Origin: a virus
Taxonomy: Duplodnaviria > Heunggongvirae > Uroviricota > Caudoviricetes
Virus record (IMG/VR): IMGVR_UViG_2671180680_000013
Reading direction: 5' to 3' (one strand)
Length of the DNA stretch: 8,443 nucleotides
Shown here: positions 1-8,390 of the stretch, one piece after another
Numbering within the stretch: position 1 is the first letter of the stretch
Layout: every line of letters starts with the position of its first letter
Translations under genes and position numbers: made by a program
Notes under the pieces: generated by a model
Databases searched by the model: none
Told to the model about the DNA's origin: nothing
The model's input: the letters and a program-made list of their open reading frames with translations, nothing else

Positions 1-2940
1 GTATTAAGACTATCACTTATTTAAGTGATACTGGTTGTCTGGAGATTCAGGGGGCCAGTCTAATTGCCGACGGAAAAACGCTGGTTATTGGCAATACAGA
101 GAATGACGGAGCTGTTGACTCTATTGCTGGTACCGGGTTGATCACCAAAACAGGTTCCGGCGATCTGGTACTTAATGCAGATAACAATGACTTTACTGGT
201 GAGATGCAGATTGAAAACGGTGAAGTTACCCTGGGCCGCAGCAACTCCCTGATGAATGTCGGCGATACGCATTGCCAGGACGATCCGCAAGACTGCTACG
301 GTCTGACGATAGGGAGTATTGATAAGTACCAGAATCAGGCAGAGCTAAACGTTGGCTCCACCCAACAAACCTTTGTGCACTCATTGACGGGCTTTCAGAA
401 TGGCACTTTAAATATCGATGCTGGTGGCAATGTTACTGTTAATCAAGGCAGTTTTGCTGGCACCATCGAAGGTGCTGGTCAGCTCACCATTGCGCAAAAC
501 GGCAGCTACGTGCTGTCGGGGGCGCAGTCGATGGCGCTAACCGGCGATATAGTCGTTGATGATGGTGCGGTGCTTTCGCTGGAAGGCGACGCGGCAGATC
601 TCGCCGCTCTCCAGGACGATCCGCAGTCGATCGTGTTAAACGGCGGTGTGCTCGATCTCTCTGATTTCTCCACCTGGCAGAGCGGCACATCATACAATGA
701 TGGCCTTGAAGTCAGTGGCAGCAGCGGAACGGTTATCGGCAGTCAGGATGTGGTAGATCTTGCAGGTGGCGACAATTTGCATATCGGCGGCGACGGGAAA
801 GATGGCGTCTACGTGGTGGTCGATGCGAGCGACGGGCAGGTAAGTCTGGCAAANNNNNNNNNNNNNNNNNNNNNNNNNNNNNNNNNNNNNNNNNNNNNNN
901 NNNNNNNNNNNNNNNNNNNNNNNNNNNNNNNNNNNNNNNNNNNNNNNNNNNNNNNNNNNNNNNNNNNNNNNNNNNNNNNNNNNNNNNNNNNNNNNNNNNN
1001 NNNNNNNNNNNNNNNNNNNNNNNNNNNNNNNNNNNNNNNNNNNNNNNNNNNNNNNNNNNNNNNNNNNNNNNNNNNNNNNNNNNNNNNNNNNNNNNNNNNN
1101 NNNNNNNNNATGGCTGACAGCAGCGGGCAGCATCAGGATGAGGGTAGCACATTTACTAAAACGGGGGCGGGTACGCTGGAGCTGACCGCCAGCGGTACAA
1201 CGCAGTCGGCAGTACGTGTCGAAGAAGGCACCCTGAAAGGCGATGTTGCGGATATCTTTCCTTATGCTTCGTCACTGTGGGTCGGTGATGGGGCGGCGTT
1301 CGTTACTGGCGCGGATCAGGATATTCAGTCTATCGATGCTACTTCCAGCGGCACTATCGATATCAGCGATGGTACGGTTTTGCGTCTGACCGGGCAGGAT
1401 ACTTCCGTCGCCCTTAATGCCTCATTGTTTAACGGCGATGGGACGCTGGTGAATGCTACCGATGGCGTGACGTTGACAGGTGAGCTTAATACCAACCTTG
1501 AAACTGACAGCCTGACCTATCTTGCCGACGTGACGGTTAATGGTGATCTGACCAATACGTCCGGTGCGGTTAGCCTGCAAAATGGCGTCGCTGGCGATAC
1601 GCTGACGGTAAACGGTGATTATACCGGCGGCGGTACGCTACTGCTCGATAGCGAATTAAACGGCGATGACTCGGTAAGCGATCAATTGGTGATGAACGGT
1701 AATACTGCTGGCAATACCACGGTGGTGGTTAACTCTATTACAGGGATTGGTGAGCCGACATCGACAGGCATTAAAGTGGTTGATTTCGCAGCTGATCCCA
1801 CGCAGTTTCAAAACAATGCGCAGTTCAGTCTGGCAGGCAGCGGCTACGTCAATATGGGAGCGTATGACTACACGCTGGTGGAAGATNNNNNNNNNNNNNN
1901 NNNNNNNNNNNNNNNNNNNNNNNNNNNNNNNNNNNNNNNNNNNNNNNNNNNNNNNNNNNNNNNNNNNNNNNNNNNNNNNNNNNNNNNNNNNNNNNNNNNN
2001 NNNNNNNNNNNNNNNNNNNNNNNNNNNNNNNNNNNNNNNNNNNNNNNNNNNNNNNNNNNNNNNNNNNNNNNNNNNNNNNNNNNNNNNNNNNNNNNNNNNN
2101 NNNNNNNNNNNNNNNNNNNNNNNNNNNNNNNNNNNNNNNTGTTATCGGCGGACGTTATCATTACACGGCGGCAGGGCAACTGGCTNNNNNNNNNNNNNNN
2201 NNNNNNNNNNNNNNNNNNNNNNNNNNNNNNNNNNNNNNNNNNNNNNNNNNNNNNNNNNNNNNNNNNNNNNNNNNNNNNNNNNNNNNNNNNNNNNNNNNNN
2301 NNNNNNNNNNNNNNNNNNNNNNNNNNNNNNNNNNNNNNNNNNNNNNNNNNNNNNNNNNNNNNNNNNNNNNNNNNNNNNNNNNNNNNNNNNNNNNNNNNNN
2401 NNNNNNNNNNNNNNNNNNNNNNNNNNNNNNNNNNNNNNNNNNNNNNNCGCGTGGTTTAGCAATGATGTTTCTGAACATGAAGATGGCACAGATCATTACC
2501 ATTCGTCGGGGATTATCGCCTCGCTGGAAGCCGGGTATCAGTGGTTACCGGGGCGTGGTGTGGTGATTGAACCGCAGGCGCAGGTGATTTATCAGGGCGT
2601 GCAGCAGGATGATTTTACCGCCGCTAACCATGCGCGCGTGTCACAATCGCAGGGGGATGATATTCAGACGCGGCTGGGTTTACACAGCGAATGGCGTACC
2701 GCGGTTGGTGTCACACCAACATTAGATCTGAATTATTATCACGATCCCCATGCGACGGAAATTGAAGAAGATGGCAGCACTATCAGTGACGATGCGGTGA
2801 AGCGACGGGGTGAAATAAAAGTGGGAGTCACGGGCAATATCAGTCAGCGAGTGTCCCTGCGCGGCAGCGTGGCGTGGCAGAAAGGGAGTGATGATTTTGC
2901 CCAGACGGCAGGGTTTTTGTCGATGACGGTGAAATGGTAA
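1..2940 (+). CDS. yfaL: AIDA-I-type autotransporter adhesin (YfaL/EhaC-like), 5'-truncated by the window edge; passenger domain plus C-terminal beta-barrel translocator
   Basis: Frame +3 is open from the window edge to 853 and again 1110-1886. The product is Gly/Thr/Asp/Asn-rich with recurring NGD/TLTG-type motifs typical of beta-helical passenger domains, and ends with a junction-like GAYDYTLVED (1857-1886). After the masks, 2449-2937 (frame +1) reads AWFSNDVSEHEDG...GFLSMTVKW with a terminal Trp, as in autotransporter beta-barrels; stop TAA at 2938-2940. Gene name comes from the recalled locus order yfaL-ubiG-gyrA. The unmasked segments sit in different frames (+3; the 2140-2185 island reads best in +2; then +1), so I cannot assert the gene is intact. 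Confidence 0.8.
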
Positions 2941-2962
2941 TCGCTGTCTGACCATCACAATT

Positions 2963-3045
2963 GCCGGATGCGGCGTAAACGCCTTATCTGGCCTACGGAG
3001 AGCATTTGTAGGCCTGATAAGACGCTGCAAGCGTCGCATCAGGCA
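2963..3045. repeat. BIME: two inverted REP (repetitive extragenic palindromic) units between the convergent yfaL and ubiG 3' ends
   Basis: 2963-2996 gccggatgcggcgtaaacgccttatctggcctac and 3008-3045 gtaggcctgataagacgctgcaagcgtcgcatcaggca are each imperfect palindromes matching the enterobacterial REP consensus (GCC[G/T]GATGCG...GGCCTAC), arranged head to head and separated by about 11 nt. Confidence 0.75.
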
Positions 3046-3067
3046 TTGGCGCGGCCAAACATCAACC

Positions 3068-3811
3068 TCACTTATTCTGCGTGTGCAGCATATAGTTCAC
3101 ATCCACGCCGGGGCCGAGCTTAAAGGAATTAGTGATCGGGTTGTAATGTAGCCCGGTTATATGTCGCTCTTTTAAACTGGTCTGATCCACCCAGCCAAGC
3201 AGCTCTGCCGGTTTAATAAACTTCTTCACATCATGCGTACCTTTGGGCACCATGCGCAAAATATATTCCGCGCCAACCACCGCCATCAGCCATGACTTGC
3301 CGTTGCGGTTAAGCGTCGAGAAAAAGACATCGCCGCCTGGTTTCACCAGTTGCGCACAGGCTCTGACCACTGACTGCGGATCGGGTACGTGCTCCAGCAT
3401 CTCCATGCAGGTCACCACATCATACTGCCCGGCATGTTTTGCCGCGTGCTCTTCCACGGTTNNNNNNNNNNNNNNNNNNNNNNNNNNNNNNNNNNNNNNN
3501 NNNNNNNNNNNNNNNNNNNNNNNNNNNNNNNNNNNNNNNNNNNNNNNNNNNNNNNNNNNNNNNNNNNNNNNNNNNNNNNNNNNNNNNNNNNNNNNNNNNN
3601 NNNNNNNNNNNNNNNNNNNNNNNNNNNNNNNNNNNNNNNNNNNNNNNNNNNNNNNNNNNNNNNNNNNNNNNNNNNNNNNNNNNNNNNNNNNNNNNNNNNN
3701 NNNNNNNNNNNNNNNNNNNNNNNNNNCCCACCAGCGGGAGGCGACGGCTTCAAATTTAGCGATCTCTTCGTGGTCTACGTTATGGTTTTCCGGCGATTTT
3801 TCGGCATTCAT
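3068..3811 (-). CDS. ubiG: bifunctional 3-demethylubiquinone-9 3-O-methyltransferase / 2-polyprenyl-6-hydroxyphenol methylase (ubiquinone biosynthesis)
   Basis: Minus-strand ORF with N-terminus [28 protein letters not shown] and C-terminus ...[19 protein letters not shown]...[20 protein letters not shown]...NYMLHTQNK, matching UbiG including the post-I class I SAM-methyltransferase motifs. Start ATG is the complement of 3809-3811, with GGAG 11 nt upstream on the coding strand. The ORF-track start at 3859 adds 16 residues with no ribosome-binding site and is not used. Stop TGA is the complement of 3068-3070. The SAM-binding glycine-rich motif lies inside mask 3462-3726. Confidence 0.92.
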
Positions 3812-3845
3812 TGGCACTTCTACTCCGTAATTGGCAAGACAAACG

Positions 3846-3874
3846 AGTATATCAGGCATTGGATGTGAATAAAG
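3846..3874 (-). promoter_or_regulatory. candidate sigma70 promoter for ubiG (-10 TATACT, weak -35 CTTTAT, 17-nt spacer, read on the minus strand)
   Basis: The reverse complement of 3846-3851 is TATACT and of 3869-3874 is CTTTAT; the spacer is 17 nt and the -10 lies about 35 nt upstream of the ubiG start. Pattern match only. Confidence 0.25.
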
Positions 3875-3882
3875 CGTATAGG

Positions 3883-3913
3883 TTTACCTCAAACTGCGCG
3901 GCTGTGTTATAAT
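3883..3913 (+). promoter_or_regulatory. gyrA promoter: -35-like TTTACC (3883-3888) and extended -10 TGtTATAAT (3905-3913)
   Basis: A perfect TATAAT at 3908-3913 is preceded by TG at 3905-3906 (extended -10), about 45 nt upstream of the gyrA ATG. TTTACC lies 19 nt upstream of the -10. Shine-Dalgarno GAGGG at 3943-3947 sits 10 nt before the ATG. The gyrA promoter is known to be induced by DNA relaxation, with the -10 region the key determinant. Confidence 0.55.
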
Positions 3914-3957
3914 TTGCGACCTTTGAATCCGGGATACAGTAGAGGGATAGCGGTTAG

Positions 3958-6645
3958 ATGAGCGACCTTGCGAGAGAAATTACACCGGTCAACATTGAGG
4001 AAGAGCTGAAGAGCTCCTATCTGGATTATGCGATGTCGGTCATTGTTGGCCGTGCGCTGCCGGATGTCCGAGATGGCCTGAAGCCGGTACACCGTCGCGT
4101 ACTTTACGCCATGAACGTACTAGGCAATGACTGGAACAAAGCCTATAAAAAATCTGCCCGTGTCGTTGGTGACGTAATCGGTAAATACCATCCCCATGGT
4201 GACTTGGCGGTTTATGGCACGATCGTCCGTATGGCGCAGCCATTCTCGCTGCGTTACATGCTGGTAGACGGTCAGGGTAACTTCGGTTCCATCGACGGCG
4301 ACTCTGCGGCGGCAATGCGTTATACGGAAATCCGTCTGGCGAAAATTGCCCATGAACTGATGGCCGATCTCGAAAAAGAGACGGTCGATTTCGTTGATAA
4401 CTATGACGGCACGGAAAAAATTCCGGACGTCATGCCAACCAAAATTCCTAACCTGCTGGTGAACGGTTCTTCCGGTATCGCCGTAGGTATGGCAACCAAC
4501 ATCCCGCCGCACAACCTGACGGAAGTCATCAACGGTTGTCTGGCGTATATCGATGATGAAGACATCAGCATTGAAGGGCTGATGGAACACATCCCGGGGC
4601 CGGACTTCCCGACGGCGGCAATCATTAACGGTCGTCGCGGTATTGAAGAAGCTTACCGTACCGGTCGTGGCAAGGTGTACATCCGCGCCCGTGCTGAAGT
4701 GGAAGTCGACGCCAAAACCGGGCGTGAAACCATTATCGTCCACGAAATTCCGTATCAGGTAAACAAAGCGCGCCTGATCGAGAAGATTGCGGAACTGGTA
4801 AAAGAAAAACGCGTGGAAGGCATCAGCGCGCTGCGTGACGAGTCTGACAAAGACGGTATGCGCATCGTGATTGAAGTTAAACGCGATGCGGTCGGTGAAG
4901 TTGTGCTCAACAACCTCTACTCCCAGACCCAGTTGCAGGTTTCTTTCGGTATCAACATGGTGGCATTGCACCATGGTCAGCCGAAGATCATGAACCTGAA
5001 AGATATCATCGCGGCGTTTGTTCGTCACCGCCGTGAAGTGGTGACCCGTCGTACTATTTTCGAACTGCGTAAAGCTCGCGATCGTGCTCATATCCTTGAA
5101 GCACTAGCCGTGGCGCTGGCGAACATCGACCCGATCATCGAACTGATCCGTCATGCGCCGACGCCTGCAGAAGCGAAAACTGCGCTGGTGGCTAATCCGT
5201 GGCAGCTGGGCAACGTTGCCGCGATGCTGGAACGTGCTGGCGACGATGCTGCGCGTCCGGAATGGCTGGAGCCAGAGTTCGGCGTGCGTGATGGTCTGTA
5301 CTACCTGACCGAACAGCAAGCTCAGGCGATTCTGGATCTGCGTTTGCAGAAACTGACCGGCCTTGAGCACGAAAAACTGCTCGACGAATACAAAGAGCTG
5401 CTGGATCAGATCGCGGAACTGTTGCGTATTCTTGGTAGCGCCGATCGTCTGATGGAAGTGATCCGTGAAGAGCTGGAGCTGGTTCGTGAACAGTTCGGTG
5501 ACAAACGTCGTACTGAAATCACCGCCAACAGCGCAGACATCAACCTGGAAGATCTGATNNNNNNNNNNNNNNNNNNNNNNNNNNNNNNNNNNNNNNNNNN
5601 NNNNNNNNNNNNNNNNNNNNNNNNNNNNNNNNNNNNNNNNNNNNNNNNNNNNNNNNNNNNNNNNNNNNNNNNNNNNNNNNNNNNNNNNNNNNNNNNNNNN
5701 NNNNNNNNNNNNNNNNNNNNNNNNNNNNNNNNNNNNNNNNNNNNNNNNNNNNNNNNNNNNNNNNNNNNNNNNNNNNNNNNNNNNNNNNNNNNNNNNNNNN
5801 NNNNNNNNNNNNNNNNNNNNNNNNNNNNNNNNNNNNNNNNNNNNNNNNNNNNNNNNNNNNNNNNNNNNNNNNTCGTCAACCTGCTGCCGCTGGAGCAGGA
5901 CGAACGTATCACCGCGATCCTGCCAGTGACCGAGTTTGAAGAAGGCGTGAAAGTCTTCATGGCGACCGCTAACGGTACTGTGAAGAAAACCGTCCTCACC
6001 GAATTCAACCGTCTGCGTACCGCCGGTAAAGTGGCGATCAAACTGGTTGAAGGCGATGAGCTGATCGGCGTTGACCTGACCAGCGGCGAAGACGAAGTAA
6101 TGCTGTTCTCCGCCGAAGGTAAAGTGGTGCGCTTTAAAGAGTCTTCTGTCCGTGCGATGGGCTGCAACACCACCGGTGTTCGCGGTATTCGCTTAGGTGA
6201 AGGCGATAAAGTCGTCTCTCTGATCGTGCCTCGTGGCGATGGCGCAATCCTCACCGCAACGCAAAACGGTTACGGTAAACGTACCGCAGTGGCGGAATAC
6301 CCAACCAAGTCGCGTGCGACGAAAGGGGTTATCTCCATCAAGGTTACCGAACGTAACGGTTTAGTGGTTGGCGCGGTACAGGTAGATGACTGCGACCAGA
6401 TCATGATGATCACCGATGCCGGTACGCTGGTACGTACTCGCGTTTCAGAAATCAGCATCGTGGGCCGTAACACCCAGGGCGTGATCCTCATCCGTACTGC
6501 GGAAGATGAAAACGTAGTGGGTCTGCAACGTGTTGCTGAACCGGTTGACGAGGAAGATCTCGATACCATCGACGGCAGTGCCGCGGAAGGGGACGATGAA
6601 ATCGCTCCGGAAGTGGACGTTGACGACGAGCCAGAAGAAGAATAA
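3958..6645 (+). CDS. gyrA: DNA gyrase subunit A, carrying QRDR substitutions S83L and D87G
   Basis: The ORF translates to [53 protein letters not shown]... with catalytic-region sequence ...[19 protein letters not shown]... and the acidic tail ...[11 protein letters not shown], matching E. coli GyrA as I recall it. Codon 83 (4204-4206) is TTG (Leu) and codon 87 (4216-4218) is GGC (Gly). The GyrA-box region is hidden in mask 5559-5872. ORF length is 895 codons against 875 for K-12; the excess falls inside the mask. Confidence 0.97.
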
Positions 6646-6664
6646 TTTTACTTCTTCATGCCAA

Positions 6665-6687
6665 AAGGGAGCTATCTCCCTTGTTTG
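6665..6687 (+). terminator. possible hairpin just downstream of gyrA stop (7-bp stem AAGGGAG/CTCCCTT, loop CTAT, followed by GTTTG)
   Basis: Perfect inverted repeat 6665-6671 / 6676-6682 with a 4-nt loop; the downstream U-tract is short (GUUUG), so it is weak as a terminator on its own. Confidence 0.3.
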
Positions 6688-6693
6688 AATTGA

Positions 6694-6722
6694 AAAGTCC
6701 AGGCTGCAAAGTCTGGGCTTTT
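6694..6722 (+). terminator. rho-independent terminator candidate for gyrA
   Basis: Stem 6694-6702 aaagtccag pairs with 6713-6721 ctgggcttt (one G-U wobble), with a 10-nt loop gctgcaaagt; the 3' arm runs into TTTT (6719-6722). It lies about 50 nt past the gyrA stop. Confidence 0.5.
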
Positions 6723-6793
6723 GTCGTATTAGGGCACGGTAAAGTTTGGCTGTGCCCGTAAAAAATGGCTGGCTATACACAAGGAATGTGGCA

Positions 6794-8382
6794 ATGAGTG
6801 GTGAAAAAAAGCGAAAGGCTGGCGGTTCTATGGTCTTGTAGGTTTTGGCGCAATAGTACTGCTTTCCGCTGGTGTCTGGGCGTTGCAATATGCTGGCAGT
6901 GGGCCAGAAAAAACGTTGTCGCCGCTGGTGGTGCACAACAATCTGCAAATCGATCTCAATGAGCCGGACCTCTTTCTCGACAGCGACTCTCTGAGCCAGC
7001 TTCCCAAAGATCTCCTCACCATTCCGTTTCTCCACGATGTTCTGAGTGAAGATTTCGTTTTCTATTATCAGAATCATGCCGATCGTCTGGGCATTGAAGG
7101 CAGCATTCGTCGCATTGTCTATGAACACGATCTCACGCTGAAAGATAAACTCTTTTCGTCACTCTTAGATCAGCCCGCGCAGGCTGCGCTATGGCACGAT
7201 AAACAAGGCCATCTTTCACATTACATGGTGCTGATCCAGCGCAGTGGTTTAAGCAAACTGCTGGAGCCATTGTTGTTTGCCGCTACCAGCGACAGCCAGT
7301 TAAGCAAAACGGAAATCAGTAGCATCAAGATAAATAGTGAAACTATTCCTGTTTATCAGTTGCGCTATAACGGCAATAACGCCCTGATGTTCGCGACTTA
7401 TCAGGACAAGATGCTGGTGTTTTCCAGCACGGATATGTTGTTTAAAGATGATCAGCAGGATACCGAAGCCACGGCGATCGCAGGTGATTTGTTGAGCGGC
7501 AAAAAACGCTGGCAAGCAAGCTTTGGCCTGGAAGAGCGTGCTGCTGAAAAAACGCCAGTACGCCAGCGCATCGTGGTCAGCGCCAGGTTGCTGGGTTTTG
7601 GCTACCAGCGGTTAATGCCTTCTTTTGCTGGCGTACGCTTCGAAATGGGTAACGACGGCTGGCACAGTTTTGTGGCGTTAAATGATGAATCCGCCAGCGT
7701 AGATACCAGTTTCGATTTTACGCCGGTCTGGAACAGTATGCCTGCCGGGGCCAGCTTCTGTGTGGTGGTGCCGTATTCACACGGTATTGCCGAAGAGATG
7801 CTTTCGCACATCAGCCAGGAAAACGACAAGCTGAATGGGGCGTTAGACGGTGCCGCGGGGCTGTGCTGGTATGAAGACTCAAAATTGCAAACCCCGCTGT
7901 TTGTCGGTCAGTTTGATGGCACTGCCGAACAGGCGCAATTGCCAGGGAAACTGTTTACGCAAAATATTGGTGCGCACGAAAGCAAAGCGCCAGAAGGTGT
8001 TTTGCCGATAAGCCAGACTCAGCAGGGCGAAGCGCAAATCTGGCGTCGCGAAGTGAGTTCCCGATACGGTCAGTATCCGAAAGCGCAGGCGGCGCAACCC
8101 GATCAATTAATGTCGGATTATTTTTTCCGCGTGTCGCTGGCGATGCAAAACAAAACGCTGCTTTTCTCCCTCGATGACACGCTGGTTAATAACGCCCTGC
8201 AAACACTGAATAAAAACCGCCCGGCAATGGTGGATGTAATACCCACTGATGGCATCGTTCCGCTCTATATCAATTCACAAGGCGTGGCGAAACTGCTGCG
8301 TAACGAAACGTTGACCAGTCTGCCGAAGAATCTCGAACCGGTTTTTTATAACGCCGCACAGGTGATGCTGCCAACTTACTGA
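6794..8382 (+). CDS. yfaA: DUF2138-family exported protein (YfaA-like); reading frame interrupted at an A7 tract (6804-6810) immediately after the start codon
   Basis: ATG at 6794 with AAGGA (6781-6785) 8 nt upstream opens frame +2 (MSGEKKRKAGGSMVL, stop at 6839-6841). From 6805 frame +1 is open to TGA at 8380-8382 and begins KKAKGWRFYGLVGFGAIVLLSAGVWALQYAGSG, a classic signal-peptide or signal-anchor n/h/c pattern. There is no ATG or GTG in frame +1 before TTG at 6883 (the ORF-track start). An eighth A in the tract would join the ATG to the long ORF, giving about 529 aa. Gene name is from the recalled position downstream of gyrA. Confidence 0.6.
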
Positions 8383-8390
8383 TTTAGTGT

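Follow-up and report, generated by a model that had tools for sequence, protein, structure and literature searches.

Five N-runs in a Shigella sonnei yfaL-ubiG-gyrA contig are almost certainly scaffold gaps of estimated size

The stretch of DNA analysed here (8443 bp, hereafter the window) raises a simple question: why do two intact genes, gyrA and ubiG, read 20 and 7 codons too long, and why does a third, yfaL, change its reading frame twice, each time across a run of Ns? A sequence-only reading had proposed that the Ns are a mask whose runs were not kept at native length. There are five N-runs (1350 Ns in total, with 7093 bases visible), and the positions and sizes reported for them, 256, 253, 262, 265 and 314 nt, are exact. 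The part of the proposal that concerns length holds, since all five runs are too long, whereas the part that concerns masking does not, since the Ns are in the deposit itself. The N-runs are almost certainly scaffold gaps of estimated size in a public draft assembly of Shigella sonnei, and the gene oddities are artefacts of these estimates (Table 1).

The origin of the window is clear from the public record: the whole 8443-bp contig CWUQ01000165.1 (GCA_001258355.1, S. sonnei; locus L008) is identical to it byte for byte, Ns included. The best whole-window identity among E. coli genomes is about 98.8%, and none of 5,426 complete E. coli genomes carries the same insertions at the window's two IS junctions, which together pointed away from E. 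coli proper; a scan of species-representative genome contigs likewise gave no exact match to the IS2/yfaL junction. The finished genome of S. sonnei Ss046 matches the window at 7092 of the 7093 visible bases, the sole SNP being gyrA D87G. The locus used for this comparison (L005) is nrdA-yfaL::IS2-ubiG-gyrA-yfaA'-IS1 at 2397233-2418732 of CP000038.1, an accession whose identity as Ss046 is confirmed in PMC6562246. Apart from that SNP, the six visible segments of the window are exact matches to the Ss046 locus in the same order and on the same strand, and the two share the IS2 and IS1 junctions as well as the frameshift in yfaA; the window differs in the additional D87G and in its five gaps. 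The closest relative, a sister draft contig (L012), shows no difference from the window over the 7011 positions that both have, and its gyrA genotype is the same. Another contig (L006) has two small deletions near its start, which are irrelevant to the window.

Both ends of the window lie inside insertion sequences. Bases 1-62 match at 100% the sequence that directly precedes, on the 5' side, the IS2 transposase genes annotated in many E. coli genomes, and Ss046 has at the same site a 1331-bp IS2 with a 5-bp target duplication (ATTGC). Bases 8361-8443 match at 100% an annotated IS1 end in locus L002; in L004 and L005 the transposase of IS1 comes next. Short reads cannot resolve such repeats, which explains why this contig of a short-read draft ends in IS2 on one side and in IS1 on the other. 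Next to IS1, the yfaA remnant leaves a 499-aa ORF (6883-8382).

Table 1. Features of the 8443-bp window, with the N-runs listed as the scaffold gaps that they almost certainly represent
Feature	Position	Strand	N-run length	True length and excess	Position in L005	Remark
IS2, terminal 62 nt	1-62	-				inserted in yfaL; contig end inside repeat
yfaL/ehaC autotransporter remnant	63-2940	+				5' end cut by IS2; three N-runs inside
Scaffold gap 1	854-1109		256 N	250 nt, +6	4081-4330
Scaffold gap 2	1887-2139		253 N	248 nt in S. sonnei, +5	5108-5355
46-nt island between gaps 2 and 3	2140-2185	+			5356-5401	exact match to L005
Scaffold gap 3	2186-2447		262 N	245 nt, +17	5402-5646
ubiG	3068-3811	-				apparent 247 codons, true 240
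Scaffold gap 4	3462-3726		265 N	244 nt, +21	6661-6904
gyrA	3958-6645	+				apparent 895 codons, true 875
Scaffold gap 5	5559-5872		314 N	254 nt, +60	8737-8990
yfaA pseudogene	6794-8360	+				A8 to A7 frameshift at about 6805-6811; 3' end cut by IS1
IS1 copy, first 83 nt	8361-8443	+				contig end inside repeat

The check proposed by the earlier reading concerns the distance between the flanks of each N-run, which was compared with E. coli references and then with S. sonnei, namely Ss046, one other long-contig assembly, and the sister draft contigs with real bases at these places. Every N-run exceeds the true stretch, as the earlier reading had expected for gyrA and ubiG, and the distances of 250, 248, 245, 244 and 254 nt are found in every same-lineage sequence with real bases across the gap. 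These native lengths are those of the isolate's lineage rather than of its own bases. At gaps 1, 3, 4 and 5, L012 has real bases throughout, of native length and with the sequence of Ss046; at gap 2 only 81 of the 248 bases are present in it, so that the native length there has to come from lineage members other than the closest relative. Under all five gaps there are no SNPs among the lineage members. The E. coli references had suggested an excess of +23 at gap 2, which is wrong for this lineage: E. coli EC38 has a flank distance of 230 nt there, as its yfaL allele is 18 nt shorter than that of S. sonnei, and the frame arithmetic is the same (+2 mod 3) with +23 or with +5. The earlier reading had also held that flank distances equal to the N-run lengths would make the differences real indels, a muddled statement given that equal distances would mean no discrepancy at all, and the conclusion is unaffected.

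These distances account for the gene oddities to the nucleotide. The claim that 60 extra nt lie within the N-run in gyrA and 21 within that in ubiG proved exact: the reference proteins in both E. coli EC38 and S. sonnei are 875 aa for GyrA and 240 aa for UbiG, and these lengths are found in L004, L005 and L009-L013 wherever they are ungapped. The apparent gyrA ORF has X at residues 534-639, and gap 5 covers residues 534-619 of GyrA, and with them the GyrA box QRRGGKG (residue 560). Read from MNAEKSP, with its ATG at 3811, ubiG is interrupted by gap 4, under which lie residues 29-110 of UbiG and, among them, the SAM motif VLDVGCGGG (residue 60). Thus, both motifs do lie under N-runs, as had been supposed. 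In yfaL, the visible pieces are collinear, ungapped matches to annotated yfaL. Those at 63-853 and 1110-1886 are stop-free in frame 3 only, and that at 2448-2940 is stop-free only in frame 1, its terminal stop aside. For the 46-nt island, frame 2 gives VIGGRYHYTAAGQLA; all three frames are open there, and the true one comes from the reference alignment. The +3, +2, +1 succession described earlier was therefore correct, and both shifts are +2 mod 3, exactly as the excesses of gaps 2 and 3 give. Filling the gaps from Ss046 yields 8334 bp with an 875-aa GyrA, a 240-aa UbiG and a single 969-codon open frame for yfaL. The changes of frame in yfaL are almost certainly artefacts, and the underlying gyrA, ubiG and yfaL are ordinary, with nothing of unusual biology under the Ns.

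The behaviour of sister assemblies fits gaps of estimated size. In seven to eight sister scaffolds the N-runs lie at positions different from those in the window, their lengths are in error by -16 to +111 nt relative to the true length, and small islands of 6, 48, 71 and 112 nt lie between gaps. Placement is thus assembly-specific and length inexact, which argues for estimated gaps rather than real indels. On this reading the assembler linked six sequence pieces by read pairs, with the N-runs estimating the unsequenced distance between them, and the five overestimates create 20 phantom codons in gyrA, 7 in ubiG and two frame shifts in yfaL. The software was probably a pipeline of the Velvet/SSPACE/GapFiller type, a combination exemplified for short-read draft assembly by Page et al. 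(2016, PMC5320598). The prefix CWUQ01 and those of the sisters were not found in the accessible part of the supplement of that paper, and a literature search returned no paper naming CWUQ01 or sister accessions. As in short-read scaffolds of that kind, the N-runs of the window are approximate and join collinear pieces, errors of both signs, tiny islands and scaffold ends in IS elements occur across its batch, and gap places vary among assemblies of near-identical isolates. The batch differs from typical scaffold gaps in that its true gap sizes are unusually uniform, near 250 nt (14 of 17 in 241-263), and that the same hot spots, overlapping and slightly GC-rich, are hit by gaps repeatedly. This clustering is not explained by simple random coverage loss. 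GC content is 0.557 in gaps vs 0.532 (p about 0.007, the gaps not being independent), a modest enrichment that is suggestive of a contribution but not explanatory.

One may argue, following the literal wording of the earlier reading, that downstream data preparation masked known sequence with N-runs whose length was not kept. True hidden lengths near 250 nt, together with four sister N-runs of exactly 250, do look designed, and the genome contig collection is described as having some masked stretches. Nevertheless, the NCBI-sourced copy of the contig has identical Ns at 8443 bp, and the gene calls of the collection break at the N-runs. Moreover, the submitter's own truncated proteins start at N-run edges and have public accessions, namely a 239-aa GyrA product (CSG71513.1, S. 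sonnei) and a 129-aa UbiG product (CSG71486.1, S. sonnei, on an 8443-bp contig), so the Ns belong to the deposit. In addition, Ns are placed differently in identical sister contigs, and none occur in 21.5 kb of either the finished Ss046 genome or AKNE01000052.1, an assembly from another project; with such placement across identical sequences, neither a content-based nor a uniform random mask fits. The window resembles length-preserving hard masking in having N runs within otherwise normal sequence, but its run lengths depart from the native ones at all five places and its Ns were already public. Masking during data preparation, with lengths not kept, is very unlikely.

Less probable still, and scarcely credible, is that the N-run lengths are right and that the isolate has real insertions of 20 codons in gyrA, 7 in ubiG and 2 in yfaL, along with two yfaL frameshifts. 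The two intact genes and gap 1 have excesses divisible by three, and yfaL is already a pseudogene in which frameshifts cost nothing; however, multiples of three in both intact genes would arise by chance about 1/9 of the time, which makes this weak evidence. Against real insertions, L012 shares the gyrA genotype and has native lengths at the four gaps that it spans, the remaining lineage members agree on these lengths, the extra bases between flanks are absent from all same-lineage sequences compared, and the +60 in gyrA is within the ordinary error of sister N-runs. Five independent indels, each exactly at an unsequenced stretch and none in the visible bases, are implausible. A variant in which the GCA_001258355.1 isolate has a real in-frame 60-nt insertion beside the GyrA box together with a 21-nt one in UbiG, the assembler having failed because reads disagreed with the expected sequence, is equally hard to credit.

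The case serves only as a caution. With gap sizes being estimates, ORF lengths and frames across N-runs in draft assemblies are meaningless, and automated scans should set N-spanning genes aside as unassessable instead of calling them variants. For the 1241 nt under the Ns, Ss046 and the sister contigs allow imputation with high confidence. As a separate observation, gyrA carries the substitutions S83L (TTG at 4204-4206) and D87G (GGC at 4216-4218), a combination known as a quinolone-resistance genotype, which the isolate thus has.

Exactly five N-runs, 1350 N altogether, interrupt the window (table), and the genes that span them have unexpected lengths. Translated across the Ns, gyrA (3958-6645) has 895 codons against 875 aa in reference GyrA, and ubiG, on the minus strand from the ATG at 3811 (MNAEKSP start), has 247 codons against 240 aa in reference UbiG. 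In the visible pieces of yfaL, frame 3 alone is open to 1886 and frame 1 alone from 2448, and the 46-nt island between the yfaL gaps, VIGGRYHYTAAGQLA, reads in frame 2. The sequence-only reading had described all of this correctly, from the positions and lengths of the N-runs to the codon counts, the yfaL frames and the reference lengths of 875 and 240 aa.

N-runs and IS ends in the window; the true distance is that between the flanks in S. sonnei, and the excess is N-run length minus that distance
Feature	Window position	Length	True distance	Excess
Gap 1	854-1109	256 N	250 nt	+6
Gap 2	1887-2139	253 N	248 nt	+5
Gap 3	2186-2447	262 N	245 nt	+17
Gap 4	3462-3726	265 N	244 nt	+21
Gap 5	5559-5872	314 N	254 nt	+60
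IS2 end (one end of window)	1-62	62 nt		
IS1 end (other end of window)	from 8361	83 nt		

The window matches the E. coli yfaL-ubiG-gyrA-yfaA region, and its six visible segments are collinear and ungapped in BLAST alignments to the annotated E. coli loci L001 and L002, where the flanks lie 250, 230, 245, 244 and 254 nt apart, each less than the corresponding N-run. With exact 40-mer flanks as anchors, Shigella sonnei Ss046 (finished genome CP000038.1; PMC6562246), AKNE01000052.1 and all sister contigs with real bases over the gap agree on distances of 250, 248, 245, 244 and 254 nt. The comparison of flank distances with N-run lengths that had been proposed from the sequence, run on both E. coli and S. 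sonnei, thus finds all five N-runs too long, with a summed excess of 109 nt over Ss046. At gap 2 (5108-5355 in the Ss046 locus, L005, versus 4319-4548 in L001), this passenger-domain stretch of yfaL measures 248 nt in S. sonnei against 230 nt in E. coli EC38 and UTME-9, a difference of 18 nt or 6 codons, and an E. coli reference therefore gives an excess of +23 there, not +5.

The 7093 visible bases equal Ss046 exactly, save one SNP at window 4217. Filled in from Ss046, the window measures 8334 bp and encodes a GyrA of 875 aa, a UbiG of 240 aa and a yfaL remnant in one unbroken 969-codon frame. A draft locus of the same gyrA genotype (L012), identical to the window at 7011/7011 shared positions, has complete real sequence under gaps 1, 3, 4 and 5, with 0 differences from Ss046.

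The window is byte-identical, Ns included, to an S. sonnei contig, CWUQ01000165.1 (GCA_001258355.1, 8443 bp). Gene calls on this contig break at the N-runs, and the truncated UbiG (129 aa) and GyrA (239 aa) are public accessions named Shigella sonnei (CSG71486.1 and CSG71513.1); therefore, the Ns were already in the record at the submitter's annotation. Sister scaffolds have N-runs at other positions, with length errors of -16 to +111 nt and islands of 6, 48, 71 and 112 nt, whereas 21.5 kb of the finished genome and of AKNE01000052.1 are free of Ns. Because the sister N-runs lie elsewhere and are inexact, gene calls break at the Ns and truncated products are accessioned, the five N-runs are scaffold gaps with estimated lengths rather than masks over known sequence. 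The sequence-only reading, which preferred masking, was right that the lengths are not native, as the flank distances show, but the Ns stand in the public deposit itself, as the assembler's estimates of gap size. A downstream masking step that altered lengths is contradicted by this provenance and by gap positions that differ by assembly in otherwise identical sequences. Real indels in gyrA, ubiG and yfaL of the isolate are contradicted by every member of the lineage and would have to number five, each exactly on an unsequenced stretch, with 0 in 7093 visible bases; that the gyrA and ubiG excesses are both multiples of three is expected by chance about 1 time in 9 and is not informative. Neither the N-run lengths nor the frame shifts are a biological feature.

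Page et al. 2016 (PMC5320598) describe a pipeline of Velvet, SSPACE joins leaving gaps of unknown N count, and GapFiller, and their accession table includes 299 S. sonnei assemblies under neighbouring prefixes. Because CWUQ01 was not found in the examined portion of their accession table, we only infer the specific software behind its gaps. Of 17 missing stretches measured, 14 have true sizes within 241-263 nt, N-runs of exactly 250 occur four times among the sister loci (L006-L013), and the gaps of independent assemblies overlap at common hot spots (about 4009-4482, 5026-5646, 6597-6904 and 8670-8990 in L005) that are slightly GC-rich (0.557 vs 0.532, p ~0.007). Such recurrent, roughly uniform gaps point to a technical and systematic origin, perhaps coverage dips together with a size range beyond the reach of gap-filling but within the read-pair span; the clustering leaves the verdict of scaffold gaps unchanged. 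In CXCJ01000184.1 (L006 85-98), 16 and 14 nt are missing relative to Ss046 near the contig start, probably through local misassembly close to the contig end.

Among 5,426 complete E. coli genomes, the highest whole-window identity is only ~98.8%; none of them shares the IS2 and IS1 junctions, and a junction scan of species-representative genomes gave no match. The frameshift in yfaA (A8 to A7) and the fusion of this gene to the IS1 end create a lineage-specific 499-aa ORF free of Ns. By exact-protein look-up, this ORF is common to 16 contigs, including CWUQ01000165.1 (gene at 6883-8382), CP000038.1, AKNE01000052.1 and seven draft contigs from sister assemblies, between 8315 and 8654 bp long.

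GyrA in the window carries S83L (TTG, 4204-4206) and D87G (GGC, 4216-4218), a double QRDR genotype named for ciprofloxacin-resistant S. sonnei (PMC4970813, PMC6811581). In 8.3 kb compared across nine sequences of this lineage, variation is limited to gyrA codon 83 position 2 and codon 87 positions 1 and 2, the position 1 variant being D87Y in one draft locus (L010). Variation confined to these two codons cleanly marks convergent quinolone selection, which is known biology.

The IS2 and IS1 termini are typical for a short-read contig of an IS-rich genome. The IS2 in yfaL is a simple 1331-bp insertion that duplicated 5 bp of its target site, ATTGC (window 1-67; L005 1954-3294), and Ss046 keeps the 5' 908 nt of the gene upstream of it. 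yfaA (window 6794-8443; 10001-13962 in L005 and in L004, a same-lineage locus) is doubly inactivated, by the homopolymer frameshift at ~6805-6811 and by IS1 at 8361. In Ss046, IS1 directly abuts the 3' part of the alpha-2-macroglobulin gene; the deletion therefore takes in the 3' end of yfaA, yfaT and the 5' portion of that macroglobulin gene, and this inactivation with its adjoining deletion is typical of Shigella genome decay.
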